A stretch of 6,503 nt of DNA, from IMG/VR virus record IMGVR_UViG_2713896737_000008, one strand, 5' to 3'. The notes beneath the pieces are model-generated. The model ran no database searches. It was not told where the DNA came from and worked only from the letters and a program-made list of their open reading frames with translations. Made by a program: the position numbers and the translations under genes. Positions 1 through 6,083 of this stretch are shown here, piece by piece. Within the stretch, counting starts at the first letter, position 1; each line of letters starts with the position of its first letter. The DNA comes from a virus. Its lineage: Duplodnaviria; Heunggongvirae; Uroviricota; Caudoviricetes.

Positions 1-926
1 TTCATGATCCGCACTTTCTGCCGGTGATTTTTGAGCATCCTCCTGAAATGGTGGAAAGCGGGGCTCACCTGCTGATGGAAAACCTCGCCATGGTTAACCC
101 GAATCTCGGTTATTCGGTGGATGAGGCCTTTCTGTACCGGGAGTACCGTAAAGCCCGGGAGGCTGGTGAGGAAGCATTTCGTGGCTTCATGTCAAAACAC
201 GCCAATGTGGAAATCGGTCTTGCCCTGCGTTCTGACCGCTGGGCGGGCGCGGATTTCTGGGAGCAGCAGGGCAGGCGCGTCAGCCTGGACGATATCCTGC
301 AGCGCGCTGATGTGGTGACGGTGGGGATTGACGGCGGGGGCCTGGATGATCTGCTGGGAATGTACGTGACTGGCCGTGACAGGGAAACCCGCGAATGGCT
401 GGGCTGGGGCCATGCCTGGGTGCATGAAACCGCGGTGGTCAGACGGAAGAGTGAGGCATCCCGGTTTCAGGATTTTGTGGCCTGTGGAGACATGACGATT
501 GTCCGTCGGGTCGGGGATGACACGGCGGAAGTGGCGGAGTATGTGCGTCGTATTCATGAGGCTGAGTTACTGGATCATATCGGTATTGACCCGTCAGGGG
601 TGGGGCAGATTCTGGATTCACTGGCGGAAGCCGGGATCCCCGATGAGAGTGTGGTGGGGATAAGCCAGGGCTGGAAGCTGGGCGGGGCCATCAAAACCAC
701 CGAGCGCAAACTGGCTGAAGGGGTGCTGATTCACGGTGATCAGCCCCTGATGGCCTGGTGTGTCGGTAATGCCCGGGTGGAGCCTAAAGGTAACGCCATT
801 CTTATCACCAAACAGGCCAGCGGACGGGGAAAAATTGACCCGCTGATGGCGCTCTTCAATGCGGTGTCCCTGATGTCCCTGAATCCGGAACCGAAAAAGA
901 AAGCGTATGAGGTTTTTTTCATATAA
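1..926 (+). CDS. Terminase large subunit (TerL), C-terminal nuclease domain; 5'-partial, with the reading frame open to the window edge (codons in phase with position 3)
   Basis: The frame containing ORF 24..926 has no stop back to position 3, so the gene starts upstream of the window. The translation carries hallmarks of the RNaseH-like nuclease domain of Terminase_1-type large subunits: 'VVTVGIDGGG...DDLLGMYVTGRD', 'GNARVEPKGNAILITKQ' and the near-C-terminal 'KIDPLMALFNAVSLM'. Stop TAA at 924-926. Recognised from memory. Confidence 0.8.
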   Translation, partial: HDPHFLPVIFEHPPEMVESGAHLLMENLAMVNPNLGYSVDEAFLYREYRKAREAGEEAFRGFMSKHANVEIGLALRSDRWAGADFWEQQGRRVSLDDILQRADVVTVGIDGGGLDDLLGMYVTGRDRETREWLGWGHAWVHETAVVRRKSEASRFQDFVACGDMTIVRRVGDDTAEVAEYVRRIHEAELLDHIGIDPSGVGQILDSLAEAGIPDESVVGISQGWKLGGAIKTTERKLAEGVLIHGDQPLMAWCVGNARVEPKGNAILITKQASGRGKIDPLMALFNAVSLMSLNPEPKKKAYEVFFI

Positions 927-989: not shown

Positions 990-2927
990 GTGACTCTTAA
1001 ACGGGCCTGTTCCCTGCTGACGGTGAAATCCTTCAGTGAGGATGAACGGGTGATCACCGGGATTGCGTCAACGCCTTCTCCGGATCGGGATGGTGACATC
1101 CTGGAGCCGGAGGGGGCTGAGTTTGGCAGTACGATCCCGTTTCTCTGGCAGCATGACCATTCCCGCCCTGTAGGCCAGTGTACGGTGCGTCGGGTCAGGG
1201 AAGGGCTGGAAATCACGGCAATGCTGGTGAAGCCGGAGCCGGGGATGCCCTCCCAGATGGCAGCCCGGCTGGATGAGGCCTGGGCTGCCATTAAGACCGG
1301 GCTGGTCAGGGGGCTTTCTGTGGGCTTCCGGCCCCATGAATACACTTATCTGGACGGAGGCGGACTGCATTTTCTGCGCTGGGAGCTGATGGAGGTGTCT
1401 GCCGTCACCGTGCCCGCGAATGCGGAATGCACCATCCGGACCATTAAATATTTCGACCGCCCGTTTTCTGCCGCGTCCGGCAACCGGAAACCGGTGGTGA
1501 AAATCGCATCTTCTGCCGGCGCTTCGGCACAGTCAATAACCTCTTTTCATAAGGAAAAGTCAGCAATGAATACTGGTGAACAGATTAAAAGTTTTGAAAA
1601 CAAGCGTGCGGCGCTGGCAGCCTCCCTTGAGGAGATCATGAACAAAGCCGCAGAGGAAGGCCGCACACTGGATGTGGAAGAGGAAGAGCACTACGACAAC
1701 ACCGCAGCGGAAATCCGTCAGGTGGATGCGCACCTGAAGCGTCTGCGTGAACTGGAAACCAGTAAGGCCGCCACGGCACAGCCGGTGAAACAGGCCGGTA
1801 ACGGGAATGTGGCCACGGTGGCTTCAGCGCCGGTGATCCGTGTTGAGCAGAAACTGGAGAAGGGGATTGGTTTCGCCCGCTTTGCCAAATCACTGGCCGC
1901 GGCTAAAGGTGTCCGCTCTGAAGCCCTGGAAGTGGCCCGTCGTCAGTATCCGGATGACAGTCGTCTGCATCATGTCCTGAAATCGGCGGTGGGGGCAGGG
2001 ACCACCACGGACCCGCAGTGGGCAGGCAGCCTGTCTGAATACCAGGAATATGCGCAGGACTTTATTGATTACCTGCGTCCGCAGACCATTATCGGGCGAT
2101 TTGGTCAGGGCGGGATCCCTGCACTTCGTCAGGTGCCGTTCAATATCCGCGTGCATGCCCAGGTGTCCGGTGGTGCTGCCGGCTGGGTGGGTGAGGGTAA
2201 GGCCAGACCCCTGACGAAGTTTGATTTTGAATCCATCACCTTCAGTCATGCGAAAGTGTCGGCCATTGCGGTACTGACGGAAGAATTGATCCGTTTTTCC
2301 AGTCCGGCTGCTGATGCACTGGTCCGTAATGCGCTGGCGGAAGCGGTGGTGGCGCGTCTGGACACAGACTTTGTGGACCCGAAAAAAGCGGCGGTGGCGG
2401 ATGTCTCCCCGGCGTCCATCACCCATGATGTGAAGGGCACGGCATCAACCGGTAACCCGGATGCGGATGCCGAGGCCGCGTTTGGCCAGTTTGTGACGGC
2501 AAATCTGCAGCCCACCGGTGCGGTCTGGCTGATGTCCAGCACGAATGCCCTGGCGCTGTCCATGCGTAAAAATGCGCTGGGGCAGAAGGAATATCCGGAC
2601 ATGACCTTGCTGGGCGGGACCTTCCAGGGGCTTCCGGTAATTGTCTCCCAGTATGTGGGTGACCAGCTGGTACTGGTGAATGCACCGGATATTTATCTGG
2701 CTGATGACGGCGGTGTGGCGGTGGATATGTCCCGTGAAGCGTCACTGGAGATGCAGTCTGAACCGACCTGCGACAGCAGCACACCGTCACCGGTGGAACT
2801 GGTCTCCATGTTTCAGACCGGCAGCGTGGCCATCCGTGCGGAGCGCTGGATCAACTGGCGTCGTCGCCGTACCGCGGCAGTGGCGGTGATCACCGGTGTG
2901 AACTACGGAACTGCGTCCGGTGGCTGA
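990..2927 (+). CDS. Prohead (head-maturation) protease fused in frame to an HK97-family major capsid protein: protease domain about aa 1-160, Ala/Ser-rich linker about aa 160-192, capsid delta domain and body aa 193-645
   Basis: N-terminal part matches HK97-type prohead protease (Peptidase S78/U35-like): 'GIASTPSPDRDGDILEP', 'LWQHDHSRPVG' (candidate catalytic His), 'GLSVGF' (candidate catalytic Ser). From M193 (nt 1566) the sequence looks like the coiled-coil delta domain of HK97-fold capsid proteins ('MNTGEQIKSFENKRAALAASLEEIMNKAAEEGRTLDVEEEEHYD...LKRLRELE'), followed by capsid-body motifs ('WVGEGKARPLTKFDFESITFSHAKVSAIAVLTEELIRFSSPAADALV'). GTG start at 990 with SD; stop TGA 2925-2927. No stop separates the two domains in this sequence. 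Confidence 0.85.
   Translation: MTLKRACSLLTVKSFSEDERVITGIASTPSPDRDGDILEPEGAEFGSTIPFLWQHDHSRPVGQCTVRRVREGLEITAMLVKPEPGMPSQMAARLDEAWAAIKTGLVRGLSVGFRPHEYTYLDGGGLHFLRWELMEVSAVTVPANAECTIRTIKYFDRPFSAASGNRKPVVKIASSAGASAQSITSFHKEKSAMNTGEQIKSFENKRAALAASLEEIMNKAAEEGRTLDVEEEEHYDNTAAEIRQVDAHLKRLRELETSKAATAQPVKQAGNGNVATVASAPVIRVEQKLEKGIGFARFAKSLAAAKGVRSEALEVARRQYPDDSRLHHVLKSAVGAGTTTDPQWAGSLSEYQEYAQDFIDYLRPQTIIGRFGQGGIPALRQVPFNIRVHAQVSGGAAGWVGEGKARPLTKFDFESITFSHAKVSAIAVLTEELIRFSSPAADALVRNALAEAVVARLDTDFVDPKKAAVADVSPASITHDVKGTASTGNPDADAEAAFGQFVTANLQPTGAVWLMSSTNALALSMRKNALGQKEYPDMTLLGGTFQGLPVIVSQYVGDQLVLVNAPDIYLADDGGVAVDMSREASLEMQSEPTCDSSTPSPVELVSMFQTGSVAIRAERWINWRRRRTAAVAVITGVNYGTASGG
1551..1568 (+). promoter_or_regulatory. 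Internal Shine-Dalgarno (AAGGA) plus in-frame ATG at the protease/capsid domain junction; possible internal translation start for a protease-free capsid protein
   Basis: AAGGAAAAGTCAGCAATG: AAGGA at 1551-1555 sits 10 nt upstream of in-frame ATG 1566-1568, which is exactly where the capsid delta-domain sequence begins. Confidence 0.4.
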
Positions 2928-2971: not shown

Positions 2972-3193
2972 ATGGCAAAAATCCAGTATCTGCAGGGCAC
3001 GCATGATGCCCGGGCCGGGGATATCCGTGATGTGGCACAGCCGTGTGCGGAGGTGCTGGTTCGCCTGGGGAAGGCGGAGTACATCACAGCGCGACGTCCG
3101 GCAGGTCAGAAAAAGAAACGTGATGCGGAGCATGGCGAATGTGGAACCTTTTGCGGCGAACCCGAAAAAACCAGAAATCAGGACGTGACGTAA
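2972..3193 (+). CDS. Hypothetical small protein (73 aa) between capsid and portal genes
   Basis: ATG 2972 to TAA 3191-3193. The first ~45 codons have third-position and codon choices like the flanking structural genes (ctg, ccg, gcg, cgt). No recognisable SD and no motif I can assign. It overlaps the annotated portal start by 55 nt. Confidence 0.3.
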   Translation: MAKIQYLQGTHDARAGDIRDVAQPCAEVLVRLGKAEYITARRPAGQKKKRDAEHGECGTFCGEPEKTRNQDVT

Positions 3194-4503
3194 GAGAAGT
3201 GGGCTGGCGGTCCCTGTTTCAGGCGGTGGCTGAGCCTTTTGCCGGTGCCTGGCAGCAGGGTGTGAAAGCCGATCCGGAAACCGTTTTGTCCTTTCACGCG
3301 GTGTTTTCTTGCATTTCGCTGATATCCCAGGATATCGCCAAAATGCGACTGCGCCTGATGCAGACCGATACACAGGGGATCCGCCGTGAAAAACGGCAGG
3401 GGGATATTGCCCGTCTCTGTCGTCGTCCTAATGCACAGCAGAATCGTATCCAGTTTTTTGAACTGTGGCTGAACGCCAAACTGCGTCACGGCAATACGGT
3501 GGTGCTGAAAATCCGTAACTCCCGGGGGCAGATCAAAGAACTGCGTATTCTGGACTGGAACCGGGTTGAACCTCTGGTGGCGGATGACGGCGAGGTGTTC
3601 TATCGCATCACGCCGGACCGGAACTGCGGGATCACGGAGGCGGTGACGGTGCCTGCCCGGGAAGTGATCCACGACCGGTTTAACTGTTTTTTTCATCCGC
3701 TTGTGGGGCTGCCGCCGGTGTATGCCGCCGGGCTGGCGGCCATGCAGGGGCATCATATTCAGGCAAATTCGACGTATTTTTTCAGAAATGGCGGGCGACC
3801 ATCAGGCGTGATTGAGGTCCCCGGCAGTATTACGGAAGAAAACGCGAAAAAACTGAAGGGGAACTGGGACAGCGGATATACGGGCGAAAATGCCGGGAAG
3901 ACGGCCATACTGAGCAACGGGGCAAAATACAGCCCCACGACGTTTTCACCGGTGGATGCGCAGACGGTGGAACAACTGAAAATGACGGCTGAAATTGTCT
4001 GTTCGGTGTTCCGTGTCCCGGCCTACAAGATTGGCGTTGGCCACCCGCCTTCCAGTGACAACGTGGAGGCGCTGGAGCAGCAGTATTATTCCCAGTGTCT
4101 GCAGACGCTGATTGAGTCCATTGAGCTGTTACTGGATGAGGCGCTGGAAACGGGGGAAAACGAGAGCACGGAGTTTGACGTCACCACGCTGCTGAGAATG
4201 GACAGCGAACGGCGCATGAAAACACTGGGTGAATCGGTGAAAAATACGCTTCTCACGCCCAATGAGGCCCGTAAACGTGAGAACCTGCCGCCCCTTGCCG
4301 GCGGTGATGCACTGTATCTTCAGCAGCAGAACTACAGTCTGGAGGCGCTGTCCCGTCGTGATGCCCGTGAGGACCCGTTCGCGTCGGCCGGGAAAACAGT
4401 TTCAGCACAACTGCCTGACGGCGCATCTGACGGTAATAAGGCAATCAGTGAAACAGAGCATGATGCAGTGAAAGCGATGTTCAGGGGGATACTGAGAAAA
4501 TGA
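3139..4503 (+). CDS. Portal protein, HK97 family
   Basis: Portal-type motifs: N-terminal 'PETVLSFHAVFSCISLISQDIAKMRLRL'; central 'FFRNGGRPSGVIEVPGSITEENAKKLKGNWDSGYTGENAGKTAILSNGAKYSPTTFSPVDAQTVEQLKMTAEIVCSVFRVPAYKIG'. ATG 3139 has GGAG 8 nt upstream. An in-frame GTG at 3199, just after the small-ORF stop, is an alternative start. Stop TGA 4501-4503. Confidence 0.85.
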   Translation: MWNLLRRTRKNQKSGRDVREVGWRSLFQAVAEPFAGAWQQGVKADPETVLSFHAVFSCISLISQDIAKMRLRLMQTDTQGIRREKRQGDIARLCRRPNAQQNRIQFFELWLNAKLRHGNTVVLKIRNSRGQIKELRILDWNRVEPLVADDGEVFYRITPDRNCGITEAVTVPAREVIHDRFNCFFHPLVGLPPVYAAGLAAMQGHHIQANSTYFFRNGGRPSGVIEVPGSITEENAKKLKGNWDSGYTGENAGKTAILSNGAKYSPTTFSPVDAQTVEQLKMTAEIVCSVFRVPAYKIGVGHPPSSDNVEALEQQYYSQCLQTLIESIELLLDEALETGENESTEFDVTTLLRMDSERRMKTLGESVKNTLLTPNEARKRENLPPLAGGDALYLQQQNYSLEALSRRDAREDPFASAGKTVSAQLPDGASDGNKAISETEHDAVKAMFRGILRK

Positions 4504-5399
4504 CGGAACGGGAACTGTCCATTATTCGTGCACTGGGCGAAGAATTCTCCACGGTGCTGGCGGATTTACAGCGCACATTTGAGGGGAAGATGGCCGCGCA
4601 GGCACAAGCGTTTGAAGAGAAACTGGCTTCCCTGTCGGCGGTATTACAGAAGCATGTGACGGTGGATGAGGTACATCCGGTTCTGCAGGCGATGGTGGAT
4701 GACGCTGTGGGGACCATTCCGGTACCGCGTGATGGTCGTGATTATGATCCGGATGTACTGCAGCAGGCGGTGAATGATGCGGTTGCGAATATTCCGGTAC
4801 CGGCGGACGGCAAAAGTATCACCCCCGATGATGTGCGTCCGATGCTTGAGCAGATGGTGAAAGAGGCTGTAAGCCATATCCCTGCTCCGCGTGACGGTCG
4901 TGATTATGATCCGGAAGTACTGAAGCAGGCGGTTCTGGAGGCGGTGAATGCCCTTCCGGCTCCGCAGGACGGGCGTGATGCCACGGCACTGGAAGTGCTC
5001 CCCGCTATTGACGATCAAAAATCCTTTCCCCGGGGCACGTATGCCACACACCTGGGTGGACTCTGGCGGGCGTATGAAAAAACGCACGGGATGCGGGGAT
5101 GGGAATGCCTGGTTGACGGGGTGGCGGATATCGACGTCAGCATGACGGATGAGCGGTTGTTCTCTGTGGTGATCCGGCAGAGCAGTGGCCAGTGTACGGA
5201 AAAAACATTTTCCCTGCCGGTGATGCTCTACCGCGGTGTGTTCAGAGCCGGTGAAACCTACCACCCCGGCGATACGGTGACGTGGGGGGGCTCGCTGTGG
5301 CACTGCAACAGTATGACCGGTGATAAACCCGGAGAAGCTCATTCATCAGGCTGGACCCTGGCTGCAAAACGTGGACGGGATGCAGGAGGCGGAAAATGA
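4500..5399 (+). CDS. Repeat-containing protein of unknown function: N-terminal coiled-coil-like segment, tandem Pro/Asp/Gly-containing repeats, C-terminal aromatic-rich globular domain; candidate virion accessory (decoration or fibre-like) protein
   Basis: ATG 4500-4502 overlaps the portal stop (ATGA), with a G-rich SD upstream. Protein-like composition and the same codon usage as its neighbours. Contains two ~54-aa tandem repeats and a C-terminal segment with 'YHPGDTVTWGGSLWHCN...GWTL'. Function is not assignable from sequence alone. Confidence 0.7.
   Translation: MTERELSIIRALGEEFSTVLADLQRTFEGKMAAQAQAFEEKLASLSAVLQKHVTVDEVHPVLQAMVDDAVGTIPVPRDGRDYDPDVLQQAVNDAVANIPVPADGKSITPDDVRPMLEQMVKEAVSHIPAPRDGRDYDPEVLKQAVLEAVNALPAPQDGRDATALEVLPAIDDQKSFPRGTYATHLGGLWRAYEKTHGMRGWECLVDGVADIDVSMTDERLFSVVIRQSSGQCTEKTFSLPVMLYRGVFRAGETYHPGDTVTWGGSLWHCNSMTGDKPGEAHSSGWTLAAKRGRDAGGGK
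4671..4994 (+). repeat. In-frame tandem repeat inside CDS 4500..5399: two 54-aa (162-nt) units, each made of ~25-aa subunits of the type [I/L]-P-x-P-x-D-G-[R/K]-D...V-L-x-Q-A-V-x-[D/E]-A-V
   Basis: Protein: 'VHPVLQAMVDDAVGT IPVPRDGRDYDPDVLQQAVNDAVAN IPVPADGKS...' against 'VRPMLEQMVKEAVSH IPAPRDGRDYDPEVLKQAVLEAVNA LPAPQDGRD...'. DNA: core 4725-4771 (ccgcgtgatggtcgtgattatgatccggatgtactgcagcaggcggt) against 4887-4933 (ccgcgtgacggtcgtgattatgatccggaagtactgaagcaggcggt), offset 162 nt, 3 mismatches in 47 nt. 'attccggtaccg' also recurs at 4716 and 4791. Confidence 0.8.
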
Positions 5400-5722
5400 C
5401 GGCATTACTGACACTGGAAGAGATCAAGGCACATCTGCGTGTTGACCATGACGCGGATGATGACATGCTGATGGACAAGGTTCGTCAGGCTACCGCCGTG
5501 CTGCTGGCCTACATTCAGGGTAGCCGGGATAAAGTGATTCGTGAGGACGGTGAGCTGATCCCGGGCGAGGCATTAACCCGGATGAAGGGGGCTGCCATGC
5601 GACTGACCGGGATGCTGTACCGGAATCCGGATCTTGCTGAGCGGGAAGACCTCGTGCAGGGGGAACTGCCGTTTTCTGTGTCCGTGCTGATTTACGATTT
5701 GCGTTGTCCGACGGTGTTATGA
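5396..5722 (+). CDS. Head-tail connector protein, phage gp6-like (Phage_connect_1 type)
   Basis: N-terminal signature 'LTLEEIKAHLRVDHDADDDMLMDKVRQATAVLLAYI' and C-terminal 'LTGMLYRNPD' are typical of gp6-like connectors. ATG 5396 overlaps the upstream stop (ATGA); AGGAGG lies 6 nt upstream. Stop TGA 5720-5722. Confidence 0.8.
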   Translation: MTALLTLEEIKAHLRVDHDADDDMLMDKVRQATAVLLAYIQGSRDKVIREDGELIPGEALTRMKGAAMRLTGMLYRNPDLAEREDLVQGELPFSVSVLIYDLRCPTVL

Positions 5723-5732
5723 GGAGGGAGGA

Positions 5733-6083
5733 ATGGCAATATCTGCAGGTCGTCTGACACAGATGATAAGTGTTCTGAAGCCGGTGTTAACCCGTAATGC
5801 TGCCGGAGAAATGACGGAAGAATGGGTGTCATGCGGGAAAATTCATGCGGATATCCGTGGCAGGAGCAGCCGGGAGCGGATGCAGTCCGGTGCGGAAATG
5901 GCGCAGGCGGAAATCCGCATCTGGGTGCGCGGTCAGTCCGGCCGGGAAATCACGGCAGCGTCACGACTTCATGTGCTGAGTGGTCCATGGCGTGACCGGA
6001 TCCTGAACGTTGTCGGGCTGCCCGTGCCGGATGCGACCGGCGGGCGTCTGGAAATTCTCTGTCGGCTGGGAGGGGAAAAATGA
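5733..6083 (+). CDS. Head-tail adaptor / head-closure protein (Phage_H_T_join, SPP1 gp16-like type)
   Basis: 116 aa with the family pattern 'RLTQMISVLKPV...GEMTEEWVSCGKIHADIRGRSSRERMQSGAEMAQAEIRIWVR...ITAASRLHV...RILNVVGLPVPDATGGRLEILCR'. GGAGGGAGG SD directly upstream; stop TGA 6081-6083. Confidence 0.75.
   Translation: MAISAGRLTQMISVLKPVLTRNAAGEMTEEWVSCGKIHADIRGRSSRERMQSGAEMAQAEIRIWVRGQSGREITAASRLHVLSGPWRDRILNVVGLPVPDATGGRLEILCRLGGEK

Follow-up and report, generated by a model that had tools for sequence, protein, structure and literature searches.

The stretch of DNA considered here (IMG/VR virus record IMGVR_UViG_2713896737_000008, a caudoviricete; 6,503 nucleotides, referred to below as the window) is, to judge from its genes and its matches, the head-neck module of a long-tailed lambdoid Escherichia coli prophage of the Shiga toxin (Stx)-converting type. 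Our subject is a 299-aa open reading frame (ORF) on its plus strand, at 4500-5399, here called X, which lies between the genes for the portal protein and for a gp6-like head-tail connector. We are nearly certain that X is a gene in its own right, translated separately, rather than a fragment of the portal gene under whose name it is filed. The tip of its product very probably has the fold of the carbohydrate-binding modules of families 5 and 12 (CBM5/12), and the family as a whole is, with scarcely less confidence, fibrous. That X forms an external, low-copy fibre at or near the portal vertex is a reading to which we give about even chances, the uncertainty over its exact anchor included.

X sequences were already abundant, under the wrong name, and phage fibres that combine a small CBM-like tip with a collagen-like or segmented stalk are familiar objects. 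What is new is the place of X as a near-universal, portal-coupled component of a large head-module class, Stx phages included, and the cause of its misannotation, which is clear: a difference between five and six G residues (G5 and G6) in a single homopolymer. X was matched in 1245 of 5426 complete E. coli genomes, often in several copies each, so that roughly a quarter of them, with Stx1, Stx2a and Stx2c phages among the carriers, contain a systematically misnamed gene. Annotation treats the normal, split form as a pseudogene or a "defective portal", which distorts calls on which prophages are intact. If X truly is a fibre that serves in adsorption and binds glycans through its conserved tip, it would also be a point of host contact not so far considered in Stx phages.

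The portal/X junction and the "portal protein" label

X shares an ATGA overlap with each of its neighbors, as the initial annotation reported, and the proposal that it is a separate cistron, translationally coupled between portal and connector, is well supported. It is by no means unassigned, as had been thought, since the family is present in the databases with the wrong name (phrog_1289, phrog_2271 and "phage portal protein" in RefSeq). The annotation of the identical locus in E. coli C7 by RefSeq and its pipeline PGAP is a single pseudogene, "phage portal protein, frameshifted", while other records have two adjacent "portal proteins" or one 860-aa protein (phages 2851 and YYZ-2008). In PHROG 2271 (859 positions), positions 1-451 are portal and the C-terminal half is X, with the best X stretch at 689-859; distant members of the family match the same two PHROGs (1289 and 2271). 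A search of NCBIfam gave no family for X; precomputed annotations list PF28083.

We compared the junction in 104 related loci. Every fused allele has G6 near the end of the portal gene and every G5 allele is split, the sixth G putting the portal in the frame of X to give ...MFRGDTEKMTERE... across the junction. Among 78 E. coli-type loci 23 are fused, including those of phages 2851, YYZ-2008 and 569R3, and 55 are split, including those of BP-4795, 1717, JLK-2012, Lys8385Vzw and the window. The sequence around G6 takes at least two forms at the junction (GAGAAA and GCGAAA), so that G6 has either recombined or arisen more than once. The fused/split polymorphism also raises a new question, that of the topology of X, to which we return below.

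The reading implied by PGAP is that portal and X are properly one portal gene of about 750-860 aa, of which the window holds a frameshifted pseudogene. It can point to the RefSeq call at the C7 locus, to the span of phrog_2271 across both ORFs and to the existence of fused ORFs. Against it, related loci of other taxa (Klebsiella to Pseudomonas, Marinobacter, Rhizobium) were found in no state but the split one, with its conserved Met and its ATGA overlap, and the split state is also that of the majority in E. coli. Portal and X are in different frames in 20 of 20 species genomes with an upstream portal (from Pantoea, Kluyvera, Enterobacter, Citrobacter, Pseudomonas, Morganella, Marinobacter, Haliea, Proteus and others), and no fusion outside E. 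coli was found in these 20, in 36 non-E. coli enterobacterial viral contigs of IMG/VR or in 3 remote metagenomic members. The overlap is kept as AAATGA in 36/36 of the non-E. coli enterobacterial loci and in the Enterobacterales species genomes, and stand-alone X proteins all begin at the same conserved Met. The Pfam portal domain, PF04860, lies wholly within the upstream ORF and ends 70 aa before the junction, with no match in the 299 residues of X even at E<=1. Finally, the Sakai prophage Sp10, which has the split form (ECs1974 + ECs1975), was scored as intact for morphogenesis; it was also packaged, and its transfer to K-12 succeeded (PMC2669165). On the frames, the conservation of the Met and ATGA overlap across taxa and the transfer of Sp10 we reject the pseudogene reading, to which we attach next to no probability. 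On this evidence the split state is ancestral and functional, which makes the "portal" name and the pseudogene flag artefacts.

The 2009 survey of Sakai prophages listed the portal as "defective" in Sp6, Sp9 and Sp12 and as intact in the split-form Sp10 (PMC2669165, Table 1). The split-form phages BP-4795, Lys8385Vzw and FSL SP-016 are known here as deposited phage genome records.

A different use of the same junction would be a programmed -1 ribosomal slip that yields a minority portal-X fusion from split alleles and so anchors the fibre covalently. Two sites might serve, G GGG followed by the rare codon ATA (4484-4491) and A AAA before the TGA stop. GGG in the P site could re-pair one base back on G5, the next codon is the rare ATA and the product would be the same as the G6 protein; a related prophage, moreover, carries tRNA-Ile(CAT) and tRNA-Arg(TCT). 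Most genera, however, have no G run, having AGA GGA TTG/TTT in its place, and the codon before AAA varies (ACC, GCC, ACA, CGA, AGA). Since neither feature is kept outside E. coli there is no conserved slippery site, and we reject a conserved programmed frameshift as very improbable. The last portal codons (window 4483-4500) are rich in codons rare in E. coli, namely AGG, ATA and AGA, and Sp10 has, upstream of its late genes, a tRNA-Ile with anticodon CAT, which reads ATA, and a tRNA-Arg with anticodon TCT, which reads AGA (L274 15706-15958).

Helix, stalk and knob

The coiled-coil-like N-terminus described initially corresponds to one long helix, predicted by AlphaFold2 (AF2) at aa 3-49 with a per-residue confidence (pLDDT) of 65-79. 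The start of the protein is conserved in the alignment as M[NT]ERELS.I..LGEEF, and we propose this helix as the segment for attachment to the virion or for oligomerization. Two 54-aa tandem repeats follow, as had been noted, at aa 52-105 and 106-159. Identity between the two is 57-59% at the protein level and 67% at the DNA level, and the best 40-aa self-match of X has 26 identities, where 300 shuffles reach 9.4 on average and 14 at most. Each unit is made up of half-repeats of 25 and 29 aa, consisting of a helix and then a PxPxDG loop. Tandem Repeats Finder detects no array within X at the DNA level, the repeats being visible only in the protein, because the DNA copies are old and only 67% identical. 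All four of the motifs given as IP-x-P-x-DG-[RK]-D are present, two of them fitting exactly and the other two with one deviation each (Table 1). The protein is acidic, with an isoelectric point (pI) of 4.9. An identical run of 11 bases, GAAAATGACGG, stands at both junctions of X, at 4496-4506 (portal/X) and 5392-5402 (X/connector).

The conserved C-terminal region is longer than the approximately 110 aa first assigned to it, comprising about 140 aa (aa 160-299), and contains both of the aromatic motifs that had been singled out. An internal duplication relating these two motifs was considered and dropped, their likeness not being significant (148 of 500 shuffles reached the score). The AF2 model of this region, built from a 79-sequence alignment, is a confident all-beta knob (pLDDT 93.6), and Foldseek agrees with that reading while giving no full-length match in PDB; the sequence search of PDB with X returned only noise, apart from a CBM-like stretch of All3316. 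The suggested likeness to CBM5/12 modules was shown for the second aromatic motif only: just the last 50 or so residues of the knob, aa 243-290, are CBM-like, and the beta subdomain before aa 243 has no structural match. In the AF2 model, compared by Foldseek, aa 243-290 appear to take up the three-dimensional fold of the CBM5/12 modules, which are beta modules of about 45-60 aa, and we regard this fold as very probable for the tip; the Pfam CBM_5_12 score of the window protein, on the other hand, lies below the cut-off (see below). In the family member P0195 CBM_5_12 scores 27.4 bits, above the gathering cut-off of 26.2.

The known CBM5/12 modules with which we compared the tip are those of Serratia ChiB, Streptomyces ChiC, Bacillus ChiA1 and a Vibrio chitin deacetylase. 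The X module shares with them the fold, the motif Y..GD.V.W.G..W and a conserved downstream Trp, and differs in being set in a larger 140-aa beta knob at the tip of a fibre, with no enzyme attached. Three Trp residues that may serve in sugar stacking, W262, W267 and W285, vary little or not at all, and where ChiC has a WW pair X has a single W. The fold suggests that the ligand would be a glycan.

A large family with a variable stalk

X has 1627 homologues. A search with its C-terminal 150 residues finds 5386 clusters (at 50% identity) at E<=1e-3, of which 351 remain at E<=1e-30, and in each case it is the C-terminus that matches, in proteins that are mostly 200-660 aa long. These proteins begin with an amphipathic helix and end in the conserved knob, and the part in between differs greatly in length. 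In 66 of 144 family representatives (46%) this middle part holds five or more G-X-Y triplets in succession, with runs of up to 49; P0195, for example, matches Pfam Collagen at E=2e-9. The median pI in the family is 5.0. The viral structures in BFVD nearest to the knob belong to collagen-repeat, ChiC_BD and tail-fibre proteins. The idea of a fibre put forward in the initial annotation is strengthened by these relatives with a genuine collagen stalk, and it is with good confidence that we call the family fibrous; by analogy with its collagen-bearing members X would also be trimeric.

Within E. coli the stalk varies in the number of 54-aa units, which ranges from 1 to 6 among the alleles. The E. 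coli-type viral contigs (L025-L104) have two copies in 7 cases, three in 23, four in 42, five in 4 and six in 1, and the near-identical units of some multi-copy alleles indicate recent expansion. One-copy forms of X are found as 245-aa proteins in the protein database, and the window holds a short, two-copy allele. A much longer stalk is seen in P0146, a metagenomic protein of 1237 aa from a different lineage, in which about 25 units of helix + LPEPEPLPDI lie between a portal and a knob; this second portal-fibre fusion may be independent and real, or else an assembly or frameshift error.

X resembles in its build the collagen-like tail-fibre and minor tail proteins that carry ChiC_BD at their tips, which combine a collagen or segmented stalk with small beta-hairpin tip modules and which were the nearest proteins in both Foldseek and BFVD (PHROG 5073 and 1806, the fibres of Agrobacterium phages 7-7-1 and Milano, and All3316 of the Anabaena contractile injection system). 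The genes for those proteins, however, lie in tail or baseplate modules and have tips that vary with the host, whereas X lies between portal and adaptor and has a tip conserved from Escherichia to Pseudomonas and Marinobacter, its C-terminal half being conserved also to Rhizobium.

A fixed place in the head module

The order terminase large subunit (TerL), fused prohead protease and major capsid protein (protease-MCP), portal, X, Phage_connect_1 and Phage_HCP is constant in every locus, including those of collagen-type members only about 40% identical to X, and X overlaps or abuts both of its neighbors even in the remote collagen-type members. With the portal used as query, the knob ORF was directly downstream in 56 of 59 loci that had enough downstream sequence, and two of the three exceptions were fusions. 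Measured in the same loci, the knob is 64-71% identical and the portal 57-69%, and the knob also exceeds the connector in conservation. Being conserved to about the same extent as the portal, the knob tracks the head module rather than the host. On this comparative evidence X, in its 5386 clusters, behaves as a core part of one HK97-like type of head module, the protease-MCP fusion type, and not as a host-range cassette. A protease-MCP fusion accompanies X in every related locus for which the upstream region was captured, remote metagenomic ones included.

Dozens of Stx1a, Stx2a and Stx2c phages match the window at 95-99.7% identity over 2.6 kb. Of 50,697 phage records searched, 93-99 match X, nearly all of them E. 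coli phages of the Stx type, the remainder being a few labelled Salmonella (FSL SP-016), EBPR, Rhizobium (RHph_X2_26) and Pseudomonas; none of these 93-99 records comes with functional data.

A proposed fibre at the portal vertex

In the reading we favor, at about even chances as said, the translation of X is coupled to that of the portal cistron, and for that reason X would probably be made in low, portal-like amounts. The product would be a thin, segmented and probably trimeric virion fibre, anchored by its N-terminal helix at or near the portal vertex, whether on the neck or collar or on the adjacent capsid; it is the fixed position of the gene that points to this anchor. From there an acidic stalk of variable length would extend, made of helix + PxPxDG units here and of collagen G-X-Y triplets in many relatives, and at its distal end the conserved knob, with a CBM5/12 chitin-binding fold in its last 50 or so residues, may bind weakly and reversibly to a widely shared glycan of the N-acetylglucosamine (GlcNAc) type or to another part of the virion. 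Such binding would aid adsorption or brace the head-tail joint, as collar and whisker fibres do elsewhere.

The closest functional analogues of X would indeed be found among these collar and whisker fibres, for which we compared T4 fibritin (Wac), XM1 gp40, Bas63/Sf14 and the neck passage structure of lactococcal phage TP901-1, all of them low-copy fibrous proteins. T4 Wac forms a trimer, is segmented and has a small folding unit at its C-terminus. In T4, XM1 and Bas63 the N-terminal part of the fibre is anchored at the portal-adaptor region, and these fibres are thought to help in fibre deployment, adsorption or head-tail bracing (PMC12609058; PMC4493119). X shares with the class the position of its gene next to those for portal and adaptor. 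No similarity in sequence or fold was detected between X and these fibres, however, the knob being CBM5/12-like rather than a foldon or an immunoglobulin-like domain; and X is near-universal in its type of head module and coupled to the portal, whereas whiskers are usually dispensable extras.

Another counterpart is gp42 of Agrobacterium phage Miki, which occupies the slot of X in the order protease-MCP gp39, portal gp41, gp42 and then the stopper (PMC13611946). For gp42, a protein of 410 aa, the authors' model is a collagen trimer more than 50 nm long, and their guess at its role is decoration or adsorption (PMC13611946); no other published comment on a probable family member was found. From its position and description it is probably a member of the X family, with a stalk of the collagen type in place of the helix/PxPxDG type of the window.

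Several points weigh against a portal-vertex fibre. The window protein itself has no G-X-Y run, with 1-2 triplets at most, and its match to Pfam PF02839 (CBM_5_12), confined to aa 249-271, has a score of 19.1 bits (E=1.4e-3), below the gathering cut-off of 26.2 bits. The AF2 model of the whole protein is poor (pLDDT 58). No fibres were seen on Miki in negative stain (PMC13611946). Literature searches found no proteomic, electron microscopic or genetic datum that places X in virions, and no virion proteomics or structure that includes it; a paper on phages of enterohaemorrhagic E. coli with mass spectrometry data omits the proteins of the siphovirus phi330. For an accessory adsorption fibre, near-universal presence and so strongly conserved a tip would be unusual. 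Lastly, the fusions to the portal C-terminus argue mildly for an interior location as against exposure on the surface, and if they are functional, as in 2851, an external site would require either that translation restarts internally, at the retained ATG, or that X is released by proteolysis. The C-terminus of the portal faces the capsid interior in solved portals (HK97, SPP1, P22, T4), and phage 2851, which has a fused allele, is reportedly infectious.

Internal protein or capsid decoration?

These last observations are the basis for placing X inside the head, on the portal crown, which we think unlikely. The helix would there extend the C-terminal tail of the portal, to which it would be covalently joined in G6 alleles but not in split ones, and the fibre would run along the axis of the DNA spool, perhaps to be ejected through the tail, with a tip that could hold the glycan strands of peptidoglycan. 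In E. coli the portal C-terminus is often fused in frame to X (23/78, among them 2851, YYZ-2008 and 569R3), and P0146 (1237 aa) would be a second, unrelated fusion in another lineage. The near-universal presence of X and a tip that evolves as slowly as the portal would also suit a core internal part. Furthermore, the slot directly after the portal is known to encode portal-bound internal proteins: the minor head proteins SPP1 gp7 and Mu gpF are encoded right after the portal and are sometimes fused to it.

No similarity to MuF or gp7 was found, however, and neither Pfam, NCBIfam nor PHROGs gave a Phage_Mu_F match for X; in MuF proteins a globular form goes with variable C-termini, whereas in X the C-terminus is conserved and the body fibrous. 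The fusions, for their part, are rare beyond one lineage of E. coli (0/20 and 0/36 in the comparisons above, 2/150 among representatives). For any pair of genes that overlap by ATGA a fusion is one indel away and may therefore be a tolerated accident, and the ATG retained in fused alleles could still yield free X. Collagen stalks of up to 49 triplets and stalks of 25 units exceed the inner diameter of a head of about 55 nm, so acidic a protein (in the window as in the family at large) would be odd beside packed DNA, and the hundreds of prohead protease domains supplied by the protease-MCP fusion would threaten an extended internal protein.

A more specific form of the internal reading can be imagined, in which X is held on the inner portal crown by the C-terminal tail of the portal and, as an axial fibre, leaves with or ahead of the DNA, its tip engaging the glycan backbone of peptidoglycan. 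This would be an ejected "pilot fibre" of a siphovirus, with the G5/G6 tract switching between tethered and free forms, and we hold it to be improbable. An internal X, if that is what it is, would add a new class of ejected protein.

Somewhat less unlikely than an internal site, in our estimation, though still doubtful, is a place on the outer surface of the capsid, with X as a head fibre or decoration on capsomers away from the portal, in line with the suggestion of the initial annotation and comparable to phi29 gp8.5 or to the filaments on the heads of flagellotropic phages. The fibre architecture with its CBM-like tip and the location of the gene within the head module are both in keeping with this, and a decoration of capsid or tail was what the authors on Miki proposed (PMC13611946). 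Yet X is coupled to the gene for the low-copy portal and not to that for the capsid, and it lies always between portal and adaptor; no capsid-binding domain was recognised in it, and the heads of Miki show no visible fibres (PMC13611946).

Other genes of the window

The remaining features are those of the module as a whole (Table 1). The S78 prohead protease is the N-terminal part of the MCP ORF at 990-2927. The Phage_portal domain of the portal occupies aa 54-382 and is followed by a low-complexity tail of about 70 aa ending in ...KAMFRGILRK; the closest solved portals are 9lbn, HK97 8cez and RcGTA 6tba.

Table 1. Features of the window, with strand and supporting detail where available
Feature	Position	Strand	Detail
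Terminase large subunit, C-terminal part	24-926		
Prohead protease/major capsid (protease-MCP) fusion	990-2927		645 aa; Peptidase_S78 aa 48-151, Phage_capsid aa 386-635
Small ORF	2972-3193		73 aa; overlaps portal start by 55 bases; hypothetical in related phages
Portal gene	3139-4503	+	454 aa; Pfam PF04860 E=2.9e-80
G5 homopolymer, last portal codons	4484-4488	+	twelve bases upstream of X ATG
ATGA overlap, portal stop/X start	4500-4503	+	
Putative fibre ORF X	4500-5399	+	299 aa; phrog_1289 E=3.6e-158, phrog_2271 E=9.8e-194
N-terminal helix, aa 3-49	4506-4646	+	AF2 secondary structure; invariant columns in alignment
Stalk repeat unit 1, aa 52-105	4653-4814	+	two helix + PxPxDG half-units
Stalk repeat unit 2, aa 106-159	4815-4976	+	
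PxPxDG motifs			aa 73 IPVPRDGRD; aa 98 IPVPADGKS; aa 127 IPAPRDGRD; aa 152 LPAPQDGRD
Conserved all-beta knob, aa 160-299	4977-5396	+	AF2 pLDDT 93.6; family hallmark
CBM5/12-like module in knob, aa 243-290	5226-5369	+	YRGVFRAGETYHPGDTVTWGGSLWHC...GWTL
ATGA overlap, X stop/connector start	5396-5399	+	
gp6-like head-tail connector (adaptor Ad1)	5396-5722	+	Pfam PF05135 E=7.8e-8; phrog_40
Head closure protein	5733-6083		

The 73-aa ORF that precedes the portal has no match in Pfam; in its slot distant relatives have an ORF of about 100 aa with an E3_binding (peripheral subunit-binding) domain (L194 5348-5644, L195 2450-2788). One 3-kb contig assigned to a Chitinophaga metagenome-assembled genome (L015, NZ_DATCVJ010000643.1) carries a portal, fibre and connector of the enterobacterial type, about 50-59% identical to those of the window, and is probably a binning contaminant.

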